Assembly (NCBI GenBank): GCA_964585065.1
Contig: CAZPCB010000001.1
Coordinates: 80,034-144,033, forward strand
Reading direction: 5' to 3'
Source of the DNA: an uncultured Candidatus Saccharibacteria bacterium
GTDB taxonomy: Bacteria > Patescibacteriota > Minisyncoccia > SW-4-49-11
Length of the DNA stretch: 64,000 nt
Made by a program: the position numbers and the translations under genes. Below, one piece after another: positions 10,797 through 60,956 of the stretch. A model generated the notes under the pieces. The model saw only the letters and a program-made list of their open reading frames with translations, did no database searches and was not told the origin of the DNA. How positions within the stretch are numbered: position 1 is the stretch's first letter; every line of letters starts with the position of its first letter.

Positions 10797-13700
10797 CTAT
10801 AGGTGGTTTTCAATAAAATCAATTTCTTTTTGGTCTAGGCCATATTTTTTGTATAGCTGCTGATCAATTTCAGGAATAGACTTTGACCAATCTATATCTG
10901 ATTGAGAAGTAAAATCTTGATCTAATATTACATATCCAAAAGAAGATCTTCTATTAGGTTCTTGTAATAATAAAAAAGCAAAAAAATTAGTTTGTGAGTA
11001 TTTGACAAAATTTTCACAATCTTCATCATCATCTGACATAAATAATGAAAGTTTACTCCTTCCAAATGCCGAACCACTAGGAAGTATCTCTATAAGTTCT
11101 TTAGCTCTCAACTTAACATTCTCAATCGTCGGCTTACCCGAAACAAAAGTTTTCTTCGGGTAAGCCGACGTAACAACAACTTTATACTGATCTATATACT
11201 GTTGCCCCTTATTAATTACATTTCTATCTGCCCAAAAAAGCTTAGCTCTTCCTGAAGATCCTGATTTATCGTTAGTGAGTAACTGAATTGCATTATCCCA
11301 ATCTGATTTTTTAAAAGATACTTTTGTAGGGTTCTTCTCTACAAAGTCAGATTCAATTCCAAATACACCTTTTTTAATCCTACTGTTTAATTTTGTACCT
11401 GTTGTTAATTTTTTCCAACTTGAAAAGAAATAAGGATTAGGAGTGAGAGACTGCCAATTTTTTACTTCCACTTCTGCTACATCGTCTGTATATATACGAT
11501 TAGAATACCGATATTTTTCGTGATATTTTGTCATATCACGAAGCACAATAGAAACACCTGCTGATAAGTTAACACTATTCCCAAATATTGGAACAGGGTC
11601 TCTATCCGTTCTATACCAAGCTCTTTTATCAGAGGTACCTTCGTATGCATTTATTAATACCGTATGCCCATCGCTTAATATTTTTTTACCTATCCCTCCC
11701 AGTCTTTCAGGTGCATCAAACCAGCCTCCAAAAGGATAAATAAGACATATATTTTGTGAAATGTTATCAGCCTGTTCCTGGAAATAATAGTATATCCAAT
11801 TTGAATTACCTTGTGTCTGTGTTTGAGATTTACCTACAGTTTCCTGATACGGGGGATTTCCTACTATTGCTGTGAATTTCATATGTTTATCTAGATTAAA
11901 TTGTTCATAGAGTTTGTCTTGGAGAGAAAGACCTTCATCATCTTTCGCATAAGGGATAAGATCTAATTGAGCAAAGTTTTTGGTACTGATGATATGAGCA
12001 TCATCAAAACCAAAGATAAGTGAATTAGTTATAGCGTGCAATACACCAGTTGGGGCAAGTCCATATACCTGATTTTCTAAAATATGTTTTACACAGTCTA
12101 TATCACTACCATATTGACTCCGTGTATTAGTAAAGAGTTTTTTTACAATTTCTGTAATATATAATCCTGACTTCATATACAAATCAATGAAAGTTGTATC
12201 TGTTCGCTTGAATATATCTGGATTATGTTCTTCTAGACTATTTACCATCATTTTAACTACATGTTTAGGAGTAAAAATCTGGTTAGTAGCTTGTGGGGGG
12301 ATAAACTCAAAAATATCTTGTGTACGGTCTTGTAGATAATAATCTGAAAGTTCTGAACGTTTATGCAAAAACTCTTGTACTGATGCATTGAACACATTTT
12401 CATTAAATAGCCCTTCAAAACGACGGCTTTCAATTTGACTAGTTTCTTCATTTTTTGTTTCATATTCAAAGCCATCTCGGAGCTGTCTAAACTCCTCTTT
12501 AGTTATGCTGGTAAGTTCCTGAAATACTTCTTCTGGGATATTCTCGTCAAAGTTATGTAATGTTGTTTTAGAGTCACCATAAGCCATCAAAAAACTGGGT
12601 ATTGTTCTGGAGAATCCTCTGAGACGGTCTCTTGTTTTCTCTTCTTCTGTTTTATCTTTAGGGGCGGGCTTTTCATCTGGTTTTTCTGGCTGATGATAAT
12701 CTGGATCTCCTGGTTGCGGAACTGGATCCGGTATTTTTGCTACAACTTTGGGAAGTTTTTTCTCTAATTCTTTTATAATGACATTGGCCGCATCAGAAGG
12801 TATATTTTTATTACGGAGTTCAGTTGCTACATTGCTTTTAATTGTAGAGACTTCTTTTTCCTCTTCGCTCCCAATTTCTATATATTGCTTATCACCTAAT
12901 AAACCATTAGTAGTGTTAATTATAATATCTTCATTTATATGAATATTATTTTCTTTATCAACCCATATTCGTGGTTTATTTGAGACTTTATTTTTAGTAC
13001 TATCACCTTGTTTACCTCCTTCGTCAGGTGTCATTTTATTAATGATATCCATCACACTTTGAGGAGCTCCAAAAATACCACTAATACTTTCAAATAAGCG
13101 ATTGCTCATAAATCCTCGATTGACTACTTCCTCTGTAATAAGTTTCAAAGGAAGAGTTAATACCTGATTGGCATCGAGTTGTTGCATTCTCCCTTCATCA
13201 TCCTCTGCATACACAAATAATAAATTAATGAGTTCTTGAACTTTAGCTTCTCGTGTGATATTTGTTTTAGCTCCACTTCTATCCGCCATTTCTGCCAAAG
13301 TTTGCAGTATACGATCTGGGGCAAAGTCAAAAACATAACAGTTTTCTTTTGTGTATACTTCTCCTCCGCTCGTTGCAACTTCAAATGGGTTCTGGGCACG
13401 AAAAGCAGTCTGCATATATAATGAAGGGCTCTTACCCCCTTGTAACATCAGCACAGCTGTCCATGAAGGAACAGTAACACCTGTTGTTAACTGACCACAA
13501 GATAACGTAATGGTTTTAGTTTCTAGTGGATGCTTCTCATTATTATGTCCATTTATTGCTGCCCGCACTTCTGCCAGAGCAGAGTTAGTGAGTCTATCTT
13601 CATCACCTTCGCCTGCTGCTAAAATAATAGTATAATCTTGAAAGAAAGGGTGTTCTTGGAGTAATTGCTTCATCAACTTACTTTGAGGTACACCAGGGAG

Positions 13701-15098
13701 TAACCAGAAAGTATGTCGAAGCGATTCGAGAGAGTCTCTATTTGAAAATGGGTATTGATAATTTGGATTAGCTAAATTATCTAAGAAAAGCCTCACTTTA
13801 TCTTCATATACAAATGTATCTTTTCCATTAACTTTGATAACCCTAAAGAATTCTCCTAACTCAAACGCATATTCACTGCCTTCATTTTTTGCTTCTTCTG
13901 CTTTAATTTGCAATGCTCGAGATAATTGATAGGTAAAGATATTGAGCTTTGGTAATGGAGCATATGGATTATTACCATCCTCTATATTCCACTCTGCTTT
14001 AGCATTCTGCTCATCTGTATATGACCAGTTATATATTTGTTTACTATTAAATTTATTACTTGCAAGAGCTTTGAAGGGTGTGCCCGATAAATGGAGTGCG
14101 AAATCATAATTAACAGCCTCTAGAACGCTAAATGAGTGTCTTGTATCTACTCCTTCATGAGACTCATCAATAATTAACACATCCCATTTTATTCCATCTC
14201 CATCTTCTGATTTAAATATCCACTGATTTTTTCTTTTATATGCACTCGCATCCTCTTTTTTGCCTTTTATATCTTGAAGAGATATAAAGTGTACATAATT
14301 TGAATAAATTCCACCCTGACTAAGTTGTTCTTCACGAGTAAGAATACTATCTGAACCAGGAATATCTCTTAGATTTTTTCGAACACTTTCACTAGCAGTA
14401 AATATCCATCTATGTTTATTATCATTTTGACCCGTGTACTTAAAATCAAATTTTTGAAAATCGGTATACCAGCTATCTGCTATAGCTGGTCTATTAGTAA
14501 TAATCAGAACTTTTTTTGCTTGAATATGTTGAGCAAATGAATAGGCCGTAAGAGTTTTCCCAAAACGTGGTTTAGCATTCCATAAAAACTCTGGCTGAAC
14601 ATTGCTATCTACCAATGTATTCTCATAATAAGCAGTGGTTACTTCAACTGCCTGTTGCTGTTCAGTACGTAGTGTAAAGTCAGTAATAATACCCTCTAGA
14701 TTAATTTTGGCGTTTAATTTATAGTTCTCAATGGTTTCAATGATAATGTCTAGATCTGTCTTAAACCATTCTGCCTTTCGATTGGTTAGAGGGTTGATAG
14801 TTTCTTCTCGTTCAATTCCTAATTTTTCTAGTTCTCGATGAATATCATGGTCAGAAAATATTTTCTTGTCGTTTGTGACTGCATTAGTAGTATATAAAAC
14901 TTCATAAGCTACATTACTTGCCTCATGCTGATCAATAATTCTTAGATTATGTCCTTCTCCTATAATATTTAATTTCTTTGTTTGTCCAACCTTTAACCAA
15001 CCCTCATGTGATACGACGTCCAAATGCTTATATACATATATAACTTTTTCTTCAAAAGCTGAGATATTAATATTATCTAAATTATCTGTGGCATTCAT
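10797..15098 (-). CDS. 1433-aa single-polypeptide fusion: N-terminal T5orf172 (GIY-YIG-like) domain, SF2 helicase (DExH), gamma-class N6-adenine DNA methyltransferase, and a C-terminal putative target-recognition region. Resembles Type ISP restriction-modification enzymes.
   Basis: T5orf172: 'VIYVYKHLDVVSHEGWLKVGQTKK...KAEWFKTDLDIIIETIENY'. Helicase: 'KPRFGKTLTAYSFAQ' (Walker A), 'VLIIDESHEG' (motif II), 'LSGTPF' (III), 'QLTTGVTVPSWTAVLMLQ' (V), 'MQTAFRAQNP' (VI). MTase: 'QIFTPKHVVKMMVNSL' (motif X), 'FIDLYMKSGLYI' (degenerate motif I), 'AIVGNPPYQ' (motif IV). Confidence 0.7.
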   Translation of the reverse strand: MNATDNLDNINISAFEEKVIYVYKHLDVVSHEGWLKVGQTKKLNIIGEGHNLRIIDQHEASNVAYEVLYTTNAVTNDKKIFSDHDIHRELEKLGIEREETINPLTNRKAEWFKTDLDIIIETIENYKLNAKINLEGIITDFTLRTEQQQAVEVTTAYYENTLVDSNVQPEFLWNAKPRFGKTLTAYSFAQHIQAKKVLIITNRPAIADSWYTDFQKFDFKYTGQNDNKHRWIFTASESVRKNLRDIPGSDSILTREEQLSQGGIYSNYVHFISLQDIKGKKEDASAYKRKNQWIFKSEDGDGIKWDVLIIDESHEGVDTRHSFSVLEAVNYDFALHLSGTPFKALASNKFNSKQIYNWSYTDEQNAKAEWNIEDGNNPYAPLPKLNIFTYQLSRALQIKAEEAKNEGSEYAFELGEFFRVIKVNGKDTFVYEDKVRLFLDNLANPNYQYPFSNRDSLESLRHTFWLLPGVPQSKLMKQLLQEHPFFQDYTIILAAGEGDEDRLTNSALAEVRAAINGHNNEKHPLETKTITLSCGQLTTGVTVPSWTAVLMLQGGKSPSLYMQTAFRAQNPFEVATSGGEVYTKENCYVFDFAPDRILQTLAEMADRSGAKTNITREAKVQELINLLFVYAEDDEGRMQQLDANQVLTLPLKLITEEVVNRGFMSNRLFESISGIFGAPQSVMDIINKMTPDEGGKQGDSTKNKVSNKPRIWVDKENNIHINEDIIINTTNGLLGDKQYIEIGSEEEKEVSTIKSNVATELRNKNIPSDAANVIIKELEKKLPKVVAKIPDPVPQPGDPDYHQPEKPDEKPAPKDKTEEEKTRDRLRGFSRTIPSFLMAYGDSKTTLHNFDENIPEEVFQELTSITKEEFRQLRDGFEYETKNEETSQIESRRFEGLFNENVFNASVQEFLHKRSELSDYYLQDRTQDIFEFIPPQATNQIFTPKHVVKMMVNSLEEHNPDIFKRTDTTFIDLYMKSGLYITEIVKKLFTNTRSQYGSDIDCVKHILENQVYGLAPTGVLHAITNSLIFGFDDAHIISTKNFAQLDLIPYAKDDEGLSLQDKLYEQFNLDKHMKFTAIVGNPPYQETVGKSQTQTQGNSNWIYYYFQEQADNISQNICLIYPFGGWFDAPERLGGIGKKILSDGHTVLINAYEGTSDKRAWYRTDRDPVPIFGNSVNLSAGVSIVLRDMTKYHEKYRYSNRIYTDDVAEVEVKNWQSLTPNPYFFSSWKKLTTGTKLNSRIKKGVFGIESDFVEKNPTKVSFKKSDWDNAIQLLTNDKSGSSGRAKLFWADRNVINKGQQYIDQYKVVVTSAYPKKTFVSGKPTIENVKLRAKELIEILPSGSAFGRSKLSLFMSDDDEDCENFVKYSQTNFFAFLLLQEPNRRSSFGYVILDQDFTSQSDIDWSKSIPEIDQQLYKKYGLDQKEIDFIENHL

Positions 15099-53507: not shown

Positions 53508-53849
53508 TTATGAAACTGCTTCTTCGGCTTCTGGCAATATGTCTAATCTTCTCTCATCTATCTCTTCTCCTGTATGAATATCTCGTCCATATGTTCCCTC
53601 TTCAATGCGAGCCAATGCCTTATCAATTTTCAATAATGTTTCTTCTAAAGTTCCTTCTACGAGAATATCTCGCTCATAATTAACCTGCTCCTGAGCATTA
53701 TCTTCCTCATCCTCACTGATATTCTGATATTTAACCTCATAGCCAGTTCCTGTACTGTCTTTAGTAGCCACAGAATCAAGCTCAGAAATAATTCTTTGTC
53801 TTTTTTCAAGAAGTCTATTACGATAGAGTTCTAATTTTACTGAGTCCAT
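53508..53849 (-). CDS. DksA/TraR-family-like protein lacking the C4 zinc-finger cysteines.
   Basis: 'LEETLLKIDKALARIEEGTYGRDIHTGEEIDERRLDILPEAE' parallels the DksA C-terminus, but Cys-x2-Cys is replaced by R-D..H-T. Confidence 0.45.
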   Translation of the reverse strand: MDSVKLELYRNRLLEKRQRIISELDSVATKDSTGTGYEVKYQNISEDEEDNAQEQVNYERDILVEGTLEETLLKIDKALARIEEGTYGRDIHTGEEIDERRLDILPEAEEAVS

Positions 53850-53886: not shown

Positions 53887-54651
53887 TTATACCAAGGAAG
53901 TAAATACAAGTAGTCCCAATAATATACTAATCAATACTGTCCTAGCTATTATTTTTTTAGTATTCAAGACTCTCAAATAAATATCTCTAAATATGGATAA
54001 TGAGAATATCAAAAAAGTAGTTAATATTATTGACTGGGTAAGATGAGTTAATGGCAATACTCTAAGTCCAATAAATAATTCCACTATTACAAGTGAAAGT
54101 ATAAAAGACATAATACGATAAAATTCACGATCAACCCCATACATCCATAAAATATATAATGAGATATTAAGCGTAGAAATAAAAGCAATAATACTCAATA
54201 TAATTGGTGATGTTGTTCCTATAAATATAGATCCAAATAAAAAGGCATAGGTGGAGAAAGATACAAATATACTACCGGATATAATAATTTGTCTCATAAA
54301 TTCTGAACTTCTATATTCTTTATGAGAAATAATATCTTGTACAAAAAATAGTCCCAAACCAAGAACAATTACAATAACGGCAATAGGCACTGTATCCCCT
54401 TTTATAACCCTCATAAATAGAATTGATGCAATAATAAAATGTAATGGTATTTGATAAGAACGTATTTTATATTGATACAAAAAAATTAAATACGCAATTA
54501 ATATCAAAAACCCTATTATTCCAAATAAACTAAATAATGATTGATTTGACTTAATAATATATAAATAACTTGGGAAAAACCCAATAAGCAATACAATATT
54601 CCAAAAATTTTTCTGGAATATTATTTGTTGTAACCATTTCACATACTGCAT
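53887..54651 (-). CDS. Hypothetical polytopic membrane protein (254 aa).
   Basis: About 7 TM helices. Confidence 0.35.
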   Translation of the reverse strand: MQYVKWLQQIIFQKNFWNIVLLIGFFPSYLYIIKSNQSLFSLFGIIGFLILIAYLIFLYQYKIRSYQIPLHFIIASILFMRVIKGDTVPIAVIVIVLGLGLFFVQDIISHKEYRSSEFMRQIIISGSIFVSFSTYAFLFGSIFIGTTSPIILSIIAFISTLNISLYILWMYGVDREFYRIMSFILSLVIVELFIGLRVLPLTHLTQSIILTTFLIFSLSIFRDIYLRVLNTKKIIARTVLISILLGLLVFTSLV

Positions 54652-54654
54652 ATA

Positions 54655-56475
54655 TTATCTCCGAAACTTGATTGATCTTCCTTGTGGTATATTATTTTTT
54701 GTAGGTTCTTTAGGTACCATGAGATTTGACTTTACTTCAGATAATAATTCATCCAAAAGCCCATCTACACTTAATTTCTCCTCTTGATTAGATACATGTA
54801 AGTCTTTCAGAAATTTTTCTTTAATCAAATATTCTGATTCCCCATAAGAAGAAGTTGATCTACTAAATACTTCTTTTAATTTTTTTGCCATTATTGGATT
54901 CGTATACTCTACGGATTCTGCAGTAGGAATATCTTGTTTCACTTCTGATATAATTTCTTCTATTTTCACCTCTGCTTTTGGAGTATTATCAATTAGCTCT
55001 GATGATAGAGGTACTTCAATCTCATCTTTAGGTATAGGATTTTCTTTTTCTAATTTTGGATAAACTATAGGATTAGCTTTATTTGAGGTATTATATGACT
55101 TTGATTTATCATTATAGGGTTTAGAATAAGGTTTTGATTTATTCTGGTTATCTGATGACGATTTTACTTGAGGCTCTAAAGATGCTTTAGTGTCTGTATT
55201 CTCAATATGTGCTCCTCTCAGTGAAGATTTAGTGTTTCCATATGTTTTACGAGAATACTCAATAATCTGATCTCGCATAGATATAAGTTCTGGCTCCGGA
55301 TCTGGCAATGTATCTGCACTAAATGGCTGACTAGTAGCCCCATCTATCATAAGCTTCAAATATATTTTCCATTTTGGAAGATTAACCAAATCCTCAATGG
55401 TAAGCACTGGAGTAAATTCTCTTTCCATAAATTCAGCATCAGCTGCCCCAATTCTAAATACAATAGTAGTCCCAACATTACCAAATACCGCACCTCTTAC
55501 AATTTCAGATAACTGTTCTACATATTGATGAGCCAATATAAGACTTAGTCTATATTTACGAGCTTCTGATAATATTTCGGCAAAAGAGTCTGTTGAAAAG
55601 TTTTGAAACTCATCGATATAGGCAAAAAAGTCTTGTCGCTGCTCCTCTGGGATATCAACCCTACTCATAGCAGCCAACTGCATTTTGGTAATCATCATAG
55701 CTCCCAGTAATTGAGCCCCTCCTTCTCCCACCGCTCCTTTCGATAAATTCATAATCAAAATTTTCTTTTGATCCATAATTTCTCGTAAATTGAAAGAAGA
55801 TTTAGCCTGTCCAATAATATTACGAATAAGTGGGGATGAAGTAAATTGCCCTACCTTATTTTGAATAGGAGCAATGGCCTCAACTAATAATTTATCTGTA
55901 TATCCATCAAATTCATTTAACCAGAATTGTTTTAATACCGGGTCATGCATTTTATACACAATATTAGCCCGAAAATTCTTATCTACAAGAATGCGCATAA
56001 TATCAAGCAAGGTACTTTCTTCATTCTCAAGTAGAGTTAAAATGGTATTACGAAGAATATATTCAAGTCTAGGTCCCCACGAATCCGCCCAAATTTTCTT
56101 AAACACTCCAACAAGACCATCAGATACAATATGTCTTTGATTTTCTGGAACATCCCCCAGAACATTAAATGCAATCGGATATTCTAAATCTTGAGGATTA
56201 AAATATACCACATCTTTCACGCGATGCTCTGGAATATAGTCTAGTAGCGCATCTGCTATATCACCATGGGGATCTACAAAAGCAAACCCATCTCCACTAC
56301 GTATATCGGATACTGCCATATTAAGAAGAAGAGAAGTCTTTCCCATTCCTGTTTTACCGATAATATGCATATGGCGACGTCTATCATCTCGCTTAATACC
56401 AAAAATTCTTCCCTGACCATGGAAATTAGTCTTGGCAACAATGGTAATATCTTTATTTGTTTGATTTTGACTCAT
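54655..56475 (-). CDS. HerA/FtsK/TraD-superfamily P-loop ATPase (DUF87-like) with a low-complexity C-terminal tail.
   Basis: 'RRRHMHIIGKTGMGKTSLLLNMAVS...FAFVDPHGD' (Walker A plus DPHG motif), Walker B-like 'FAYIDEFQNF'. C-terminal Ser/Asn/Lys-rich region. Confidence 0.55.
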   Translation of the reverse strand: MSQNQTNKDITIVAKTNFHGQGRIFGIKRDDRRRHMHIIGKTGMGKTSLLLNMAVSDIRSGDGFAFVDPHGDIADALLDYIPEHRVKDVVYFNPQDLEYPIAFNVLGDVPENQRHIVSDGLVGVFKKIWADSWGPRLEYILRNTILTLLENEESTLLDIMRILVDKNFRANIVYKMHDPVLKQFWLNEFDGYTDKLLVEAIAPIQNKVGQFTSSPLIRNIIGQAKSSFNLREIMDQKKILIMNLSKGAVGEGGAQLLGAMMITKMQLAAMSRVDIPEEQRQDFFAYIDEFQNFSTDSFAEILSEARKYRLSLILAHQYVEQLSEIVRGAVFGNVGTTIVFRIGAADAEFMEREFTPVLTIEDLVNLPKWKIYLKLMIDGATSQPFSADTLPDPEPELISMRDQIIEYSRKTYGNTKSSLRGAHIENTDTKASLEPQVKSSSDNQNKSKPYSKPYNDKSKSYNTSNKANPIVYPKLEKENPIPKDEIEVPLSSELIDNTPKAEVKIEEIISEVKQDIPTAESVEYTNPIMAKKLKEVFSRSTSSYGESEYLIKEKFLKDLHVSNQEEKLSVDGLLDELLSEVKSNLMVPKEPTKNNIPQGRSIKFRR

Positions 56476-56484
56476 ACTATTTGA

Positions 56485-57765
56485 TTACTCATTGATAATA
56501 GGAAGTCCCATAGGAGGATTGGCTTTTTTTGCCTGAACTCTCTTAAGTGTTGATGTAGTAACTGAACCACCTGGAAAATGAAATAACGTAGTTAATTCTT
56601 CGGTATTAAAAATAAATTTAGTACTTGCTATTTTACGTTTCACATAATTATCGAGCATTAATATTTTACGCAAACGCTCTTTTCCGCGAATAGGTTTATT
56701 GAAGAAATTACTTACTATAGTTATCGTATCTTCATTGGGTTTAAACGAATTCAAAGTAGAATCATTGAATTGTTTTAAACTACCCAGTAATGCTTTTGGT
56801 TGATTAGGGTTAAATCTTGCTTTTGGGGCTAAATATACTACCCTTAATACCGTTAAGAATCCTGGTTTAGTCATGCTCATTTCAATAGTTTCTATGGTAT
56901 TCTTTTTACCTGGGGTGAGATTTTGATCTACGCCAAACTTTTGCTCTTTAGGAGTAGGTGCCGATGGAGCCTTTACGATACCCAATGAGATAAATTCAAT
57001 AATTGGAGCTATATAGATATCTAGGAATGTTCTCTTATCTTCAAAGTCACGATCCAGTAGCTTATCTAATTCTTTTTTACTCACTTTACTCCAGGTATCC
57101 TCCAGAGATACTATTGGTAATTGCATCCATAATTGTTCATCTGGCTCTATACCTGCCATTACTTCTAATACCTGAGCTAAGGGGTCATTAATATTAGTAT
57201 CAATACTAGGATCTAAGAATTGTTGATAGGTACGAATGGGATAGGCATCATTTTTTGCCATACCAAGATCTATTCCAAAAAGATCATATTCAACTTCTAA
57301 TGTATCATTGCTAAATCCTTTGGTATAATCAGTAACTTCTATAATTTCTACCTCAGGAAAAGCACCATATATACCATTCTCTACCATTTTACGATATTTG
57401 ACATGGGTACGAATCAGGAAATGAATATCTCCTCCAATAGATACAATTTCAAGAGAAAACATATCAGGAAGAGCTCCTTCTATATTCGTCTCCCACCAAG
57501 AATATGAGGTTTGCCCACCATGTAGGGTAGTCAAAAACTGCTCCATAGATTTTGGAGTTTTCTCTTCACCTTTTTCTAATACAATTTCAAGTAATACAAA
57601 TTGTAAATTATTTTTTATCCAATTCCCTCGAATAAAATCAAAATAGAGGGTTCTCAGAATAGTCCAAAGTATAATCGGAAGCCAAACCCACCAAAAAGTT
57701 AAAATAAACCTAAAAATAAAAAATGCCTGATCTATGTTTACATATGATGAAATACCATTAGGCAT
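56485..57765 (-). CDS. Hypothetical membrane-anchored protein (426 aa).
   Basis: Two N-terminal TM helices, then a large soluble domain. Confidence 0.35.
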   Translation of the reverse strand: MPNGISSYVNIDQAFFIFRFILTFWWVWLPIILWTILRTLYFDFIRGNWIKNNLQFVLLEIVLEKGEEKTPKSMEQFLTTLHGGQTSYSWWETNIEGALPDMFSLEIVSIGGDIHFLIRTHVKYRKMVENGIYGAFPEVEIIEVTDYTKGFSNDTLEVEYDLFGIDLGMAKNDAYPIRTYQQFLDPSIDTNINDPLAQVLEVMAGIEPDEQLWMQLPIVSLEDTWSKVSKKELDKLLDRDFEDKRTFLDIYIAPIIEFISLGIVKAPSAPTPKEQKFGVDQNLTPGKKNTIETIEMSMTKPGFLTVLRVVYLAPKARFNPNQPKALLGSLKQFNDSTLNSFKPNEDTITIVSNFFNKPIRGKERLRKILMLDNYVKRKIASTKFIFNTEELTTLFHFPGGSVTTSTLKRVQAKKANPPMGLPIINE

Positions 57766-57816
57766 ACATTTGTGTCTATTATATATATCAAGTATATCAG
57801 GAAATATTTTGTTCGT

Positions 57817-58965
57817 CTACTTATTTATATGCTTTTCTAATAAATGTATAAGTCTTGTATTAAGTTCTTTTCCTGCCGTATGTATATCTTTGTCTGAAGC
57901 ATAACTATATACCAATACACCTTCATCATATTCTCCATCTAAATCAGAGATAAATTCTGACATATCAAGTTTAGAAAAATCAAGATATCCTTGTTTCGTA
58001 CTATTCCCATTATCTAAAAGAATATGAAGTCCCAATGTATCAGCTGGCAAATAGGATAAAATAGTTTGATATATAAGTGGTATATCATGAGGCTTAGTAT
58101 GTGTTTTTGAAAAGTCATGAGGAAAAAGTTTTGAGTAAGCATACCGTTGCTTTTCACCCTCAACAGTAATATCCATCCATTCTAAATGAGCTAAAATACG
58201 TCCAATTAATAATCTTTGACTATCTGTAATAAGGCTATTAAAAGCAGACTGAATAGCATCATAATCCCCTCCTAATTCCCTGATTTCAATAATTGACTTA
58301 TCTATGGCTAAATTATGCTTCTCTGATAATAACAAAGAAAAGAGAAGGGCATTACAAATATTAGCATTCCAAGCTTGAGGATAATAGGTTTTAATATAAT
58401 CAATAATAATTTCAGCATTTGAATTATAAGCTGAATTATATATTGTTTTTTCGGAATATGGATGTTTTATATCAAAAGCAGATATCACTAAAGAGGGAGT
58501 ATCAATAAATATATGGGGATAATCAGTAAAATATCTTCCTAATTGAGTCCAGTTTTGAGTATCTAATGTTACAACCAAATCATAAGGATATTTGCCTGGA
58601 GTAATAGTTACTAATTCAGATTGGAATTTTTCTGAAGGTGAATTAAGATAAATTCTTAGCTCAGAATCTGTTCTATCATATTTGAGAGATTCAATTGGGT
58701 ATTTAGTGGTATCAATAGAAATTACCGACTCTACTGAACCTTGTAATATTGAATTTATCATGGAAGTATCAATCATAGTCAATACTTGTTGTATATGAGT
58801 ATATGATGATATGATGCTCACTTGTTTTCCCTCGGCTTGTAATACAGAAGCAAGAGCCAGGGCTGAACCCAATATATGTATTCCATGAATTTCTGGAATA
58901 GGTATTACAATTGATTGAGCATTTTGTAATGTCTCATGCATTAATGTCAAATCTGATACGGCCAT
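57817..58965 (-). CDS. Hypothetical protein with a degenerate DHH/DHHA1 (NrnA-like) architecture.
   Basis: N-terminus 'IVIPIPEIHGIHILGSALALASVLQAEGKQVSII' resembles the DHH N-terminus, but the catalytic Asp/His residues are not conserved. C-terminal 'GGDYD' sits in place of GGGH. Confidence 0.3.
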   Translation of the reverse strand: MAVSDLTLMHETLQNAQSIVIPIPEIHGIHILGSALALASVLQAEGKQVSIISSYTHIQQVLTMIDTSMINSILQGSVESVISIDTTKYPIESLKYDRTDSELRIYLNSPSEKFQSELVTITPGKYPYDLVVTLDTQNWTQLGRYFTDYPHIFIDTPSLVISAFDIKHPYSEKTIYNSAYNSNAEIIIDYIKTYYPQAWNANICNALLFSLLLSEKHNLAIDKSIIEIRELGGDYDAIQSAFNSLITDSQRLLIGRILAHLEWMDITVEGEKQRYAYSKLFPHDFSKTHTKPHDIPLIYQTILSYLPADTLGLHILLDNGNSTKQGYLDFSKLDMSEFISDLDGEYDEGVLVYSYASDKDIHTAGKELNTRLIHLLEKHINK

Positions 58966-59030
58966 AATCTATCCTTATATAGAGGATTATTATACCAAAA
59001 TACCCGGATATAGTCAAAGACCCTTTCCTT

Positions 59031-59348
59031 TTAAGCTTGTCTCAATGAGTTTCTTATACCTTGTATAAATTCAGATAATTCTTTGTTTGAGATTATATCT
59101 TGTATAGTATTTTCTGAATCTAATGCAATTTGTATTATTGATTGATTATTAATCGTGATATATATATATCGTTCTTTTACAAATAATGCCCGTGGATATG
59201 ATATTAAAATAGGAATATAATTGTCTTGTTTATCTACAAAATTAATAATAAAAGATCCATATTGCAATAATTCTTGTGCAATAAACTCATAGCTATCACT
59301 ATGATTATAGGCTTCTCCGTATTGTAATGAGAGATTTGCTGCATTCAT
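59031..59348 (-). CDS. Hypothetical protein (105 aa).
   Basis: ORF in operon context. Confidence 0.3.
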   Translation of the reverse strand: MNAANLSLQYGEAYNHSDSYEFIAQELLQYGSFIINFVDKQDNYIPILISYPRALFVKERYIYITINNQSIIQIALDSENTIQDIISNKELSEFIQGIRNSLRQA

Positions 59349-59351
59349 AGT

Positions 59352-59975
59352 TTAGAATTTACTAATAAGGAAATAATATAGGGCTGGCTGATAGGCCTCA
59401 GCCCAGTCACGAGCCTGAGACTCACCATCACTATCAGCTGGGAAACAATTCCCCATTAAGCGATAAGAATAATCTTGTAAACTTTTGCTATAGGTATATA
59501 AAACAGGTTTTGCAGATTGTTGGAATAATGGTATGGCATAATAAGAGTCCCCCACTTGGATAGTATGAATAAAAGGAGTTTTGATAGCCAGTAAAATCAT
59601 TTTAATAATTCTAGTAGCCATACCAACATCTCGAGTTTTGGTTTTACCCATAAAATAATTCCCATTTTGTACTAATTTCTCTTCTCCAGCAGAATGTGCA
59701 TAACTACGAATATTTGGCTCAATTCTAGAGTCCATATAGGCATAATGATCTAACATTGAGGGCTGAGTATATTCATTCTCTTCATGAGGAGGTAATAATT
59801 CGAATACTTCTGTATGTTTTTTTACTACAGAGGCGGGAATTTGTATCATACCATATGGTTTTACTTTTACATAAGAATCCAAATCTCGCATATATTCAAT
59901 AATATCCCCACGACGTAAATATGTCATTGTATGAATATATTCGAAATCTTGATTGAGTTTATATCTATCCGCCAT
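59352..59975 (-). CDS. Hypothetical protein (207 aa).
   Basis: ORF in operon context. Confidence 0.3.
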   Translation of the reverse strand: MADRYKLNQDFEYIHTMTYLRRGDIIEYMRDLDSYVKVKPYGMIQIPASVVKKHTEVFELLPPHEENEYTQPSMLDHYAYMDSRIEPNIRSYAHSAGEEKLVQNGNYFMGKTKTRDVGMATRIIKMILLAIKTPFIHTIQVGDSYYAIPLFQQSAKPVLYTYSKSLQDYSYRLMGNCFPADSDGESQARDWAEAYQPALYYFLISKF

Positions 59976-59976
59976 A

Positions 59977-60195
59977 TTATGTTAACAAAAATATAATTTG
60001 AGTCAGTACCAGAGATGCCCCAATACTCCATATTCCCATCACAATAAAGGAAAAGCTTCTCAGCTCACCTTTTTCATTGGGTGACATTTGTTGAATAAAT
60101 CCAGTACTCACAAGCACAAACATAGTAGCTATACTACTTGTTATTGCGATTGATATCAGGGATAATGCCCATACTTGTATAAATGCTGTTGCCAT
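59977..60195 (-). CDS. Small 2-TM membrane protein (72 aa), pilin/VirB2-like in size and topology only.
   Basis: Two hydrophobic helices. First gene of the minus-strand cluster. Putative promoters (TTGACA-like boxes) upstream at 60240-60320. Confidence 0.35.
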   Translation of the reverse strand: MATAFIQVWALSLISIAITSSIATMFVLVSTGFIQQMSPNEKGELRSFSFIVMGIWSIGASLVLTQIIFLLT

Positions 60196-60315
60196 AGTCT
60201 CAAAAGCTTATGATTAAGCGTCCTCATGCTATACAGCTTAGAGAACTGTTAATCGTATCATATCTATATTGTTTTGTCAACAACATACTACAAATTAAAT
60301 GTCAAAAGTTGTCAA

Positions 60316-60346
60316 ATAAAAAAGATGCTGTATGGCACAGCATCTG
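60316..60346 (-). terminator. Rho-independent terminator after the 78-aa ORF.
   Basis: Minus strand 'agaugcugugccauacagcaucuuuuuu'. Confidence 0.5.
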
Positions 60347-60361
60347 ATATAAGAAGAGATC

Positions 60362-60598
60362 TCAATGAGTTTGCATAGGAGTATGAGAAGAAAGCAATTT
60401 CTTCAACTCATGGAGAACTGCTCTCCACTCTTTTGGAAACCAGATTACCAGTTCATGGGCGAGTGAGCTCTCAGAGAACTCTTTCCCCACAAAATGGTTT
60501 TCAAGAATTGAGATAAAATCCTCATCCCAGAAAGATTCAACTCGGAAATGCTCAACAAGCAAATCCCTATGAGGAAGAATATACTTGGTGGTGGACAT
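60362..60598 (-). CDS. Hypothetical protein (78 aa).
   Basis: ORF plus terminator. Confidence 0.3.
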   Translation of the reverse strand: MSTTKYILPHRDLLVEHFRVESFWDEDFISILENHFVGKEFSESSLAHELVIWFPKEWRAVLHELKKLLSSHTPMQTH

Positions 60599-60725
60599 AA
60601 AAAGAACAGCTTATATATGGAAATTATATCTACACCTTGTATATTTGTCAATAGCCTACATATACACCTATCATACAAAATAAAAATCGGCCTCCTGAGA
60701 AGCCGATATTGTGTTGAGATGTGTT

Positions 60726-60956
60726 TTAGCCATATTGGGTGTGAAGAGGAGTCAGCAATGAAAGAGAGATAATCTCCTTTTTTATCCAGATGCTTTTTTC
60801 CCCAAAGGACTTCTGTAGCTTATCTCCAAGATCTTCCACACTCATACACAAATCTGCATATTCAATGAGGAGATCCAGGTCTTGAGCATCCAGCCAATCC
60901 AGAAAATAGTCTCTCAGCTTAGATTCCGAAGGGATAGAAATAGAGGGAACAGACAT
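60726..60956 (-). CDS. Hypothetical protein (76 aa).
   Basis: ORF only. Confidence 0.25.
   Translation of the reverse strand: MSVPSISIPSESKLRDYFLDWLDAQDLDLLIEYADLCMSVEDLGDKLQKSFGEKSIWIKKEIISLSLLTPLHTQYG

Follow-up and report, generated by a model that had tools for sequence, protein, structure and literature searches.

The best-described relatives of the genes considered here are the ATPases of type IV secretion systems (T4SSs), namely VirB4, exemplified by TrwK of R388, and the type IV coupling proteins (T4CPs) TrwB, VirD4 and TraD. TrwB-type motors are DNA-dependent ATPases, and T4CPs recruit protein substrates as well. For the Patescibacteria, a recent survey (Quinonero-Coronel et al. 2025, PMC12102498) reports VirD4-like T4CP homologues in 2,918 of 3,035 genomes and VirB4 in 2,417 of the same 3,035, with 148 of 5,713 T4CP copies lying near virB4. 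Orphan T4CP homologues in this phylum are already known from that work, in which a possible exaptation to another function is noted. We examined a stretch of 64,000 nucleotides (the window) from an uncultured Candidatus Saccharibacteria bacterium, placed by GTDB in the Minisyncoccia (SW-4-49-11; assembly GCA_964585065.1, contig CAZPCB010000001.1, positions 80,034 to 144,033 of the forward strand), which carries seven consecutive minus-strand genes, here called A to G (Table 1). Two of these, C and B, encode a DUF8128 membrane protein and a T4CP-like P-loop ATPase, and we are confident that they represent the two halves of a single membrane-tethered ATPase derived from T4SSs.

All seven genes were found where an initial annotation, made from the sequence without database searches, had put them. 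They are real genes rather than chance open reading frames (ORFs): homologues number more than 8000 for B, 402 for C and 55 for D, and the complete set A to G recurs in the same order in a related locus, L091 (numbers with the prefix L denote loci in our comparative collection). Close homologues carry the names Parcubacteria, Paceibacterota and Minisyncoccia, which marks the organism as a patescibacterium. The flanks were also described correctly, with a DksA/YteA-like gene (assigned by NCBIfam) and a PBP1 gene bordering the cluster at one end and secF/secD at the other, although two small ORFs between G and secF had been left out; YbaB is a further neighbour of the cluster. Intergenic gaps are short, amounting to 9 nt between C and B, 3 nt between B and A, 1 nt between G and F, and 3 nt between F and E. 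The conservation of gene order that had been anticipated holds in close relatives such as L091, whereas across the phylum only C and B are conserved. The seven genes are thus not one conserved machine. They form three layers: a core pair, C and B; the clade-specific genes D and A; and a patchily distributed trio, G-F-E.

We found B to pass the gathering thresholds of two Pfam models of T4CPs, TrwB_AAD_bind (PF10412; 33.9 bits, threshold 20.5) and TraG-D_C (PF12696; 24.6 bits, threshold 22), and a phmmer search of the PDB returned TrwB (5.6e-7) and DotL (2e-4) as its sole solved sequence relatives. The Walker A motif GKTGMGKTS (residues 40-48), VDPHGD (residues 67-72, aligned with VDPNGD of TrwB), the Walker B motif YIDEF with D288 and E289, and a downstream Q motif all align between B and TrwB. 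When a profile of 30 B homologues was compared with R388 TrwB by hhalign, 261 columns aligned with a probability of 95%, and the start of B fell on TrwB residue 117, which is where the soluble domain of TrwB begins. Hydropathy analysis found no transmembrane (TM) segment in B. Against R388 TrwK/VirB4 the same profile aligned at the Walker A motif only (probability 2.4%), and against pGO1 it matched the C-terminal third of TrsE (77%) and, weakly, TrsK (8.7%). On the strength of these profile comparisons we place B as a divergent member of the VirB4/VirD4 clade that is closest to the coupling proteins by sequence and lacks their TM domain. The initial description of B as a HerA/VirD4/TraD-type ATPase without TM segments and with a low-complexity tail therefore holds, in light of the Pfam matches, the intact motifs and the hydropathy profile. 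More specific models gave no assignment: B scored 13.1 bits against VirB4 TIGR00929 (cut-off 643), at best 41.8 bits against the NCBIfam T4CP equivalogs for TraD and the CD1115 family (cut-off 250), and 20.4 bits against HerA/DUF87 PF01935 (below the threshold of 23.2), and no NurA-like gene is a neighbour. The Ced import system was likewise not recovered, with 19.5 bits against 700 for CedB and 22.7 bits against 600 for CedD, and with no Ced match for A or G.

The ATPase is strongly conserved, with more than 140 invariant columns across 30 diverse homologues. Identity between the B of the window and that of distant loci is 47-66%; in those loci SecF reaches 33-54% and SecD 35-55%. Its C terminus is the variable part. 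Most members of the family end in a treble-clef zinc finger (PF23477), in place of which the clade of B has a disordered tail; precomputed PF23477 annotations are present on distant homologues and not on close ones, and a CxxC...CxxC motif occurs in 40 of 53 ATPases that adjoin DUF8128. The tail of B itself, which starts near residue 440, contains no Cys and is enriched in K, S, E, N and P. We considered whether loss of the zinc finger is coupled to loss of the Sigma70_r4/HARE-HTH neighbour described below, and it is not (2x2 table, 35/11/5/2).

Protein C has a hydrophobic segment at residues 14-38 by hydropathy, and an AlphaFold2 (AF2) model built from 48 sequences (mean predicted local distance difference test score, pLDDT, 84; predicted TM-score, pTM, 0.79) has helices at residues 11-23 and 25-53, followed by a domain of about 370 amino acids. 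By the positive-inside rule, the R and K residues that follow the anchor would place this large domain in the cytoplasm. Towards its C terminus C has a conserved motif, NTEEL(A/T)T-x-(Y/F)HFP, and a PPxxLP tail. Of 120 listed homologues of C, 119 bear precomputed annotations of the family model PF26449 (DUF8128), at E-values as low as 7e-270; the assignment of C to DUF8128 is taken from these annotations of its homologues rather than from direct scoring of C. In a Foldseek search of the PDB with the model of C, the 12 best matches were all chains of TrwK. Because C has no P-loop and no other P-loop ATPase appeared in the Foldseek lists, the match is best attributed to the N-terminal domain specific to VirB4 (the output does not print the aligned ranges), and the large domain of C, as modeled, probably resembles that domain. 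No bridge at the level of sequence was found between C/DUF8128 and VirB4 by profile search of the PDB, by hhalign to TrwK or by hhalign to TrsD.

Evidence that C and B belong together comes from phages in which the two are fused. In the profile of phrog_5156, which has 824 positions, C aligns on 77-368 and B on 407-819. A representative is gp156 of Bacillus phage G, a protein of 825 amino acids in which a DUF8128-like domain precedes the ATPase in one chain, a Rosetta-stone fusion: the DUF8128 profile aligns on residues 7-320 (hhalign probability 98.2%, E=5.7e-14), and the ATPase domain of B is 28.5% identical to the C-terminal half (E=2e-34). The model of C retrieved gp156 as the top match in the BFVD viral structures (E=1.8e-17); proteins of phages JL and Slash came next. 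The fused order, a VirB4-like N-terminal domain and then a P-loop domain in about 800 amino acids, is the layout of VirB4 itself, in which the Walker A motif of TrwK lies near residue 450. We therefore consider it highly likely that C and B have the architecture of a divided VirB4-like ATPase. A tblastn search of phage genomes with C found nothing, and a scan of viral contigs with the DUF8128 alignment gave one partial match; the fusion was reached through B instead. In contrast to the C and B pair, gp156 has no N-terminal membrane anchor, is encoded by a phage and lies beside a second VirB4/TraG-like ATPase, gp155.

In phage G, gp156 directly follows the gp155 gene (L095:1196-5338), and the N-terminal part of the P-loop protein gp155 also matches the model of C (Foldseek E=9.9e-6). 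Relatives are found in SPO1-like, CP-51, JL and Slash phages.

To describe the distribution of the pair we took one genome per species and found a DUF8128 relative in at least 588 genomes, of which 80 loci were kept for neighborhood analysis; the counts below refer to subsets of these species-level loci. A DUF8128 profile search of 1.84 billion cluster representatives returned 3,991 members, the best 150 of which are all stand-alone DUF8128 proteins. In 54 of 69 loci the ATPase gene follows DUF8128 at a distance of no more than two genes, and in 52 the two adjoin directly, with a median gap of 16.5 nt. No second VirB4- or T4CP-like ATPase occurs within 10 kb of the pair in the 69 loci. The most constant neighbor of DUF8128 is a protein of about 350 amino acids with an N-terminal Sigma70_r4 domain and a C-terminal HARE-HTH domain (for example L001:6790-7890, L060:8812-9852 and L084:8846-9919). 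Of 74 loci, 62 have it no more than two genes upstream, at a median gap of 64 bp, and it is kept even where the ATPase is encoded elsewhere. There is no such ORF in the window. secD or secF is found among the four genes that precede the pair in 26 of 55 loci, distant classes included, and the genes downstream of B are variable housekeeping genes. The core pair is inherited vertically as part of the core chromosome of Patescibacteria and is unlinked to T4SS genes, and the orphan VirD4-like homologues noted at the outset very probably belong to the same family as B.

Two observations on these loci are recorded here. Several loci with typical Patescibacteria gene content (L011-L090) are deposited as metagenome-assembled genomes labeled 'uncultured Gammaproteobacteria', 'Bdellovibrionales', 'Binatia', 'Pacearchaeota' or 'Saccharibacteria'; these labels are probably coarse or wrong automatic ones, so that taxon names in these records are no sound basis for claims about distribution. 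In the cultured species Minisyncoccus archaeiphilus PMX.108 (NZ_AP038758.1; L084:11384-14878) the genes for DUF8128 and the ATPase are separated by one for a protein of 1164 amino acids, which has a Gly-rich domain and a prepilin N-methylation motif.

The distribution bears on the main rival explanation, that C and B act as the coupling protein of a T4SS whose VirB4, VirB6, VirB3 and pilin genes are elsewhere in the genome, with DUF8128 replacing the TM domain of a T4CP and recruiting protein or nucleic acid. B does pass the Pfam models of T4CPs, and T4CP genes often lie away from virB4, which is itself widespread in the phylum at the frequency given above (PMC12102498). The T4SS cluster of Southlakia has no recognisable coupling protein (PMC10633639), a gap that an unlinked one would fill, and the prepilin-motif protein of M. 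archaeiphilus stands between the two genes. Nevertheless, the survey places T4CP homologues in about 500 more genomes than VirB4, in addition to the rarity of copies near virB4, and reports that a T4CP homologue of Southlakia, which may not be an orthologue of B, is non-essential, whereas the T4SS genes there are essential (PMC12102498, PMC10633639). None of the 69 loci has a T4SS ATPase within 10 kb of the pair, and pilin- or prepilin-like genes are rare near it (2-3 of 80 loci). The VirB4-type N-terminal domain of the partner points away from an adaptor and towards a VirB4-like unit complete in itself. We regard a coupling role as doubtful, while taking it more seriously than the other rivals.

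The same neighborhoods could be read as a link to protein export, with C and B working alongside SecDF in envelope biogenesis and powering the insertion or extraction of membrane or secreted proteins. The upstream secD or secF genes in distant classes favor this, as do the position of the block among PBP1, dnaK and (as seen in relatives) the mreBCD/PBP2 region, and the capacity of T4CPs to take protein substrates. On the other hand, only about 47% of loci show the Sec linkage, which may reflect inherited synteny, the conserved gene nearest to the pair encodes the Sigma70_r4/HARE-HTH protein, of a DNA-binding type, and many ATPases of the family carry a zinc finger; we judge this explanation improbable. 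A segregation or division translocase specific to Patescibacteria and similar to FtsK seems less probable still. A membrane-tethered motor of the FtsK-HerA superfamily, extremely conserved and set among housekeeping genes near those for cell wall and shape, would suit such a role, but B has no Pfam or NCBIfam match to an FtsK_SpoIIIE motor or gamma domain at E<=1, ftsK is annotated in at least Saccharibacteria (TM7x_00370; PMC10768705), and the Southlakia T4CP homologue mentioned above is non-essential (PMC12102498).

Finally, the pair could be an ATPase of phage or defense origin. The top named profile for B is in fact mad8 of MADS in PADLOC (58 bits, E=2.6e-16), above any T4CP model, and fused homologues occur in Bacillus phages. 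No neighbor of B matches any PADLOC model, however, so that no other mad or defense gene stands alongside, and the fixed position of the pair near secDF and core genes throughout the phylum is the opposite of patchy defense islands. We give this origin hardly any credence; that mad8 outscores the T4CP models on B suggests that mad8 belongs to the same subfamily without TM segments.

On balance, we think it somewhat probable that C and B together constitute a translocation motor that is hexameric and anchored in the membrane, and that probably acts on nucleic acid. C would be anchored in the cytoplasmic membrane by its N-terminal helix or hairpin and present to the cytoplasm a platform similar to the N-terminal domain of VirB4. 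The soluble, TrwB-like motor B would dock onto this platform, and the assembly would presumably be hexameric, by analogy to VirB4 and TrwB. By analogy with the same relatives, ATP hydrolysis could then move a polymer through or along the ring next to the membrane. The likeliest substrate would be a nucleic acid that is taken up, exported or handled at the membrane. D could serve as a non-catalytic nucleic-acid-binding or adaptor subunit and A as a membrane partner, both falling in the predicted transcription unit of B and C. A nucleic acid is favored as substrate by the DNA-dependence of TrwB-type motors, by the Sigma70_r4/HARE-HTH neighbor and by the zinc finger on most ATPases of the family; since the lineage of the window has neither the zinc finger nor the neighbor, we put forward nucleic acid as the substrate of this pair only tentatively.

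Several points count against a motor of this kind. The absence of both nucleic-acid hints from the window lineage is one, and the dispensability in transposon sequencing (quoted in PMC12102498) of the Southlakia T4CP homologue, which may not be an orthologue of B, is another. The pair has one or two TM helices per protomer and no obvious channel. The resemblance of C to VirB4 is purely structural, between a predicted model and solved chains, and the sequence of B is nearer to TrwB than to TrwK. DUF8128 stands without an adjacent ATPase in 15 of 69 loci. The binding of B to C and the identity of what is moved are both inferred. A narrower proposal, which we think unlikely, is that C and B are a self-contained translocase specific to the phylum that imports RNA or DNA from the host or the environment, with D as an oligonucleotide-binding adaptor in the lineage of the window. 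Current work treats the uptake of RNA or DNA by these auxotrophic, ultrasmall bacteria as an unresolved matter (bioRxiv 10.64898/2026.06.21.733656).

D and A are additions specific to one clade. Nearly all of the 55 homologues of D are 52-97% identical to it, and D has no direct Pfam match and no TM segment by hydropathy. The two weakest of its matches (E=1.3e-8 and 1.1e-6) carry PF01368 and PF02272, and the alignment with them is collinear. In the alignment, these genuine DHH and DHHA1 proteins show DGD, DHH and GGGH at the places that PEIHG, AFDIKH and DGEY occupy in D and throughout its clade. D is, by the criterion of its sequence, a catalytically dead DHH/DHHA1-like protein, in agreement with the degenerate layout recognized initially. 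It can be aligned end to end with proteins that carry PF01368 and PF02272, and differs from phosphoesterases of the NrnA/RecJ type in the replacement of DxD, DHH and GGGH and in being limited to one clade of Paceibacteria/Minisyncoccia and L069. Cdc45, an inactive member of the DHH family, serves as a scaffold on a hexameric motor, and we mention the comparison with D as a lead only.

D lies directly upstream of C in L006-8, L011 and L091-92, and on L093 and L097 it follows G-F-E. This is the slot that is held elsewhere in the phylum by the Sigma70_r4/HARE-HTH protein; the possibility that D is a diverged copy of that protein was rejected (BLASTP E=0.097; nothing by profile search). A and D are confined to the family-level clade of the window (L006-8, L011, L091-93), apart from one further dead-DHH gene in L069. 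A general pattern of DHH-family genes near the pair was also sought and not found, D-like genes occurring in the window clade and L069 only; a RecJ-like gene downstream of B in seven loci goes with common neighboring genes. The gene in L069 (L069:1768-2886, minus strand) has lost all of the catalytic motifs and matches the D profile with E=2.9e-61. It lies 1.8 kb upstream of the Sigma70_r4/HARE-HTH-DUF8128-ATPase triad in a distant lineage, which may be coincidence.

A has about 7-8 hydrophobic helices by hydropathy and an all-helical single-sequence AF2 model of low confidence (pLDDT 54), and its homologues occur only in L006-8, L011 and L091-92. A weak match of its profile to the DUF5656 group (E=2.8e-5; hhalign probability 58%) hints that A is perhaps a distant relative. 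We note that DUF5656 membrane proteins of 251-253 amino acids are encoded four genes downstream of B in L041 (16444-17199), L067, L077 and L088, and seven genes downstream in L054. No Pfam or NCBIfam match at E<=1 was found for A to VirB6/TrbL or for G to VirB2/TrbC, and the DUF5656 resemblance is the most that can be detected for A.

The trio G-F-E is probably unrelated to C and B, a small unit of patchy distribution. By hydropathy G has two TM segments and E and F have none, so that the membrane topologies described initially, including those of A and of the anchor of C, stand. None of A, E, F and G matches a family in Pfam, NCBIfam, PHROGs or PADLOC, and no relatives of F were found in viral contigs. 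The trio is present in L091 (L091:8474-9638) and L093, in both of which D is 90% identical to that of the window, and in L097 (L097:1299-2501), with a D at 55% identity. L006-8 and L011, which have diverged to a similar degree (58% identity for D), lack it, and there D directly follows secF. E is acidic. F is the best kept of the three in L097 (75% identity) and E the least (48%). Promoter-like sites precede both G and D, which fits two units, G-F-E and D-C-B-A, and G-F-E is probably a separate unit; the promoter and terminator calls are consensus matches only.

These findings bear on the case of a single apparatus. The initial annotation had seen in the cluster one secretion, DNA-transfer or appendage module. 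On such a view all seven genes would form a T4SS-like, competence-like or surface-appendage machine in which A would be the VirB6-like channel and G the VirB2-like pilin. The genes are indeed co-directional and tightly spaced, the same seven follow one another in L091, and G is a two-helix protein of pilin size. Yet G-F-E is missing where D follows secF, D and A do not occur beyond a single clade, promoter-like sites stand before two of the genes, and A, E, F and G match no VirB6/TrbL, VirB2/TrbC, pilin or Com family. Nor were VirB4, VirB6, pilin or competence genes found by Pfam among the 10 cluster ORFs and the 20 larger ORFs of the window that were scanned. We consider a single apparatus extremely improbable. 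The companion statement that no component could be assigned is outdated for three of them: B is a T4CP-like ATPase, C a DUF8128 protein and D a dead DHH protein.

Outside the cluster, the spacer between secF and G holds the two small ORFs, a sigma-70 promoter-like site and two strong terminator-like hairpins. tblastn searches with both ORFs gave no match, even in L091, in which the flanking genes are about 90% identical; accordingly, we take the spacer to be a hypervariable spot. A Pfam scan of the 20 larger ORFs elsewhere in the window assigned 17 to housekeeping functions (among them DnaB, several aminoacyl-tRNA synthetases, RRF, Adk and RNase Y) and one to a restriction-modification fusion, and left two without a match. 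The fusion is a large enzyme with ResIII helicase/nuclease and Eco57I-type methylase domains.

Table 1. Features of the gene cluster and of its surroundings in the window (positions are those of the 64,000-nucleotide stretch).
Feature	Position	Strand	Length (aa)	Description
Restriction-modification ORF	10797-15098	minus	1433	ResIII and Eco57I-type methylase domains
DksA/YteA-like gene	53508-53849			flanking gene
A	53887-54651	minus	254	polytopic membrane protein
B	54655-56475	minus	606	P-loop ATPase
B tail, residues 441-606	54655-55155	minus		low-complexity, Cys-free
B ATPase domain, residues 1-440	55156-56475	minus		soluble T4CP-like P-loop domain, motor half
C	56485-57765	minus	426	DUF8128; membrane anchor and, by its model, a VirB4-N-terminal-domain-like cytoplasmic domain
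C membrane anchor, residues ~14-53	57607-57726	minus		predicted long TM helix or helical hairpin
D	57817-58965	minus	382	predicted dead DHH/DHHA1-like protein
Promoter-like site before D	58989-59017	minus		TTGACT, 17 nt, TATAAT, with TG; 11/12 consensus
G-F-E	59031-60195	minus		tightly packed trio
E	59031-59348	minus	105	
F	59352-59975	minus	207	
G	59977-60195	minus	72	two TM segments
Promoter-like site before G	60252-60280	minus		consensus match
Spacer secF-G	60323-60956	minus		two small ORFs
Spacer terminator-like hairpin	60323-60345	minus		strong
Spacer ORF	60362-60598	minus	78	
Spacer promoter-like site	60623-60651	minus		12/12 sigma-70 consensus
Spacer terminator-like hairpin	60686-60707	minus		strong
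Spacer ORF	60726-60956	minus	76	

The Patescibacteria account for much of the diversity of bacteria and are unable to synthesize nucleotides, and their acquisition of macromolecules from hosts is an open problem. A near-universal ATPase of T4SS descent whose conservation in the compared loci exceeds that of SecD and SecF, and that is unlinked to T4SSs, is a prime candidate for an undescribed core function in these bacteria. With an obligate membrane partner of VirB4-like fold, the phage fusion and the Sigma70_r4/HARE-HTH neighbor, what had been an orphan T4CP becomes a defined machine of two components that is open to testing, and DUF8128 gains a structural assignment. As a practical matter, T4SS-like annotations in genomes of Patescibacteria need not imply secretion or conjugation. 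Our searches for relevant literature on DUF8128, on CxxC-x17-CxxC, on HARE-HTH combined with sigma domains and on MADS returned none, and the DUF8128 partner, its VirB4-like fold, the phage fusion and the triad beside secDF appear to be absent from the searchable literature.

Compared with VirB4, represented by the TrwK structures (PDB 7o42, 7o43, 8rtb and 8rtd), the pair divides between two genes what is there one protein, and hhalign to TrwK detects nothing for C and the Walker A motif for B; the pair also differs in having no VirB3, VirB6, VirB8 or pilin genes nearby and in its chromosomal housekeeping setting. With the T4CPs (TrwB, VirD4 and TraD; PDB 1e9r and 1gl6; DotL, 6sz9) B shares a matching ATPase domain, TrwB being its best solved relative. 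It differs from them in having no N-terminal TM domain, in a partner that carries a VirB4-type domain, and in the long disordered tail found here or the zinc finger of other lineages; no relaxase or mating-pair genes were seen near B among the 10 cluster ORFs and 20 larger ORFs scanned. The same gene logic is found in TrsD and TrsE of the Staphylococcus plasmid pGO1 (an MPF-FATA T4SS), where trsD is directly upstream of trsE and TrsD is reported as a small protein related to the N-terminal part of VirB4 (PMC12102498). The DUF8128 profile, however, does not match TrsD (probability 0.1%), and a full set of conjugation genes surrounds TrsD and TrsE. As for the orphan T4CPs of Patescibacteria, for which the accessible portions of the same survey describe no partner, our analysis adds the link to DUF8128, the VirB4-like fold, the phage fusion and the conserved neighborhood.

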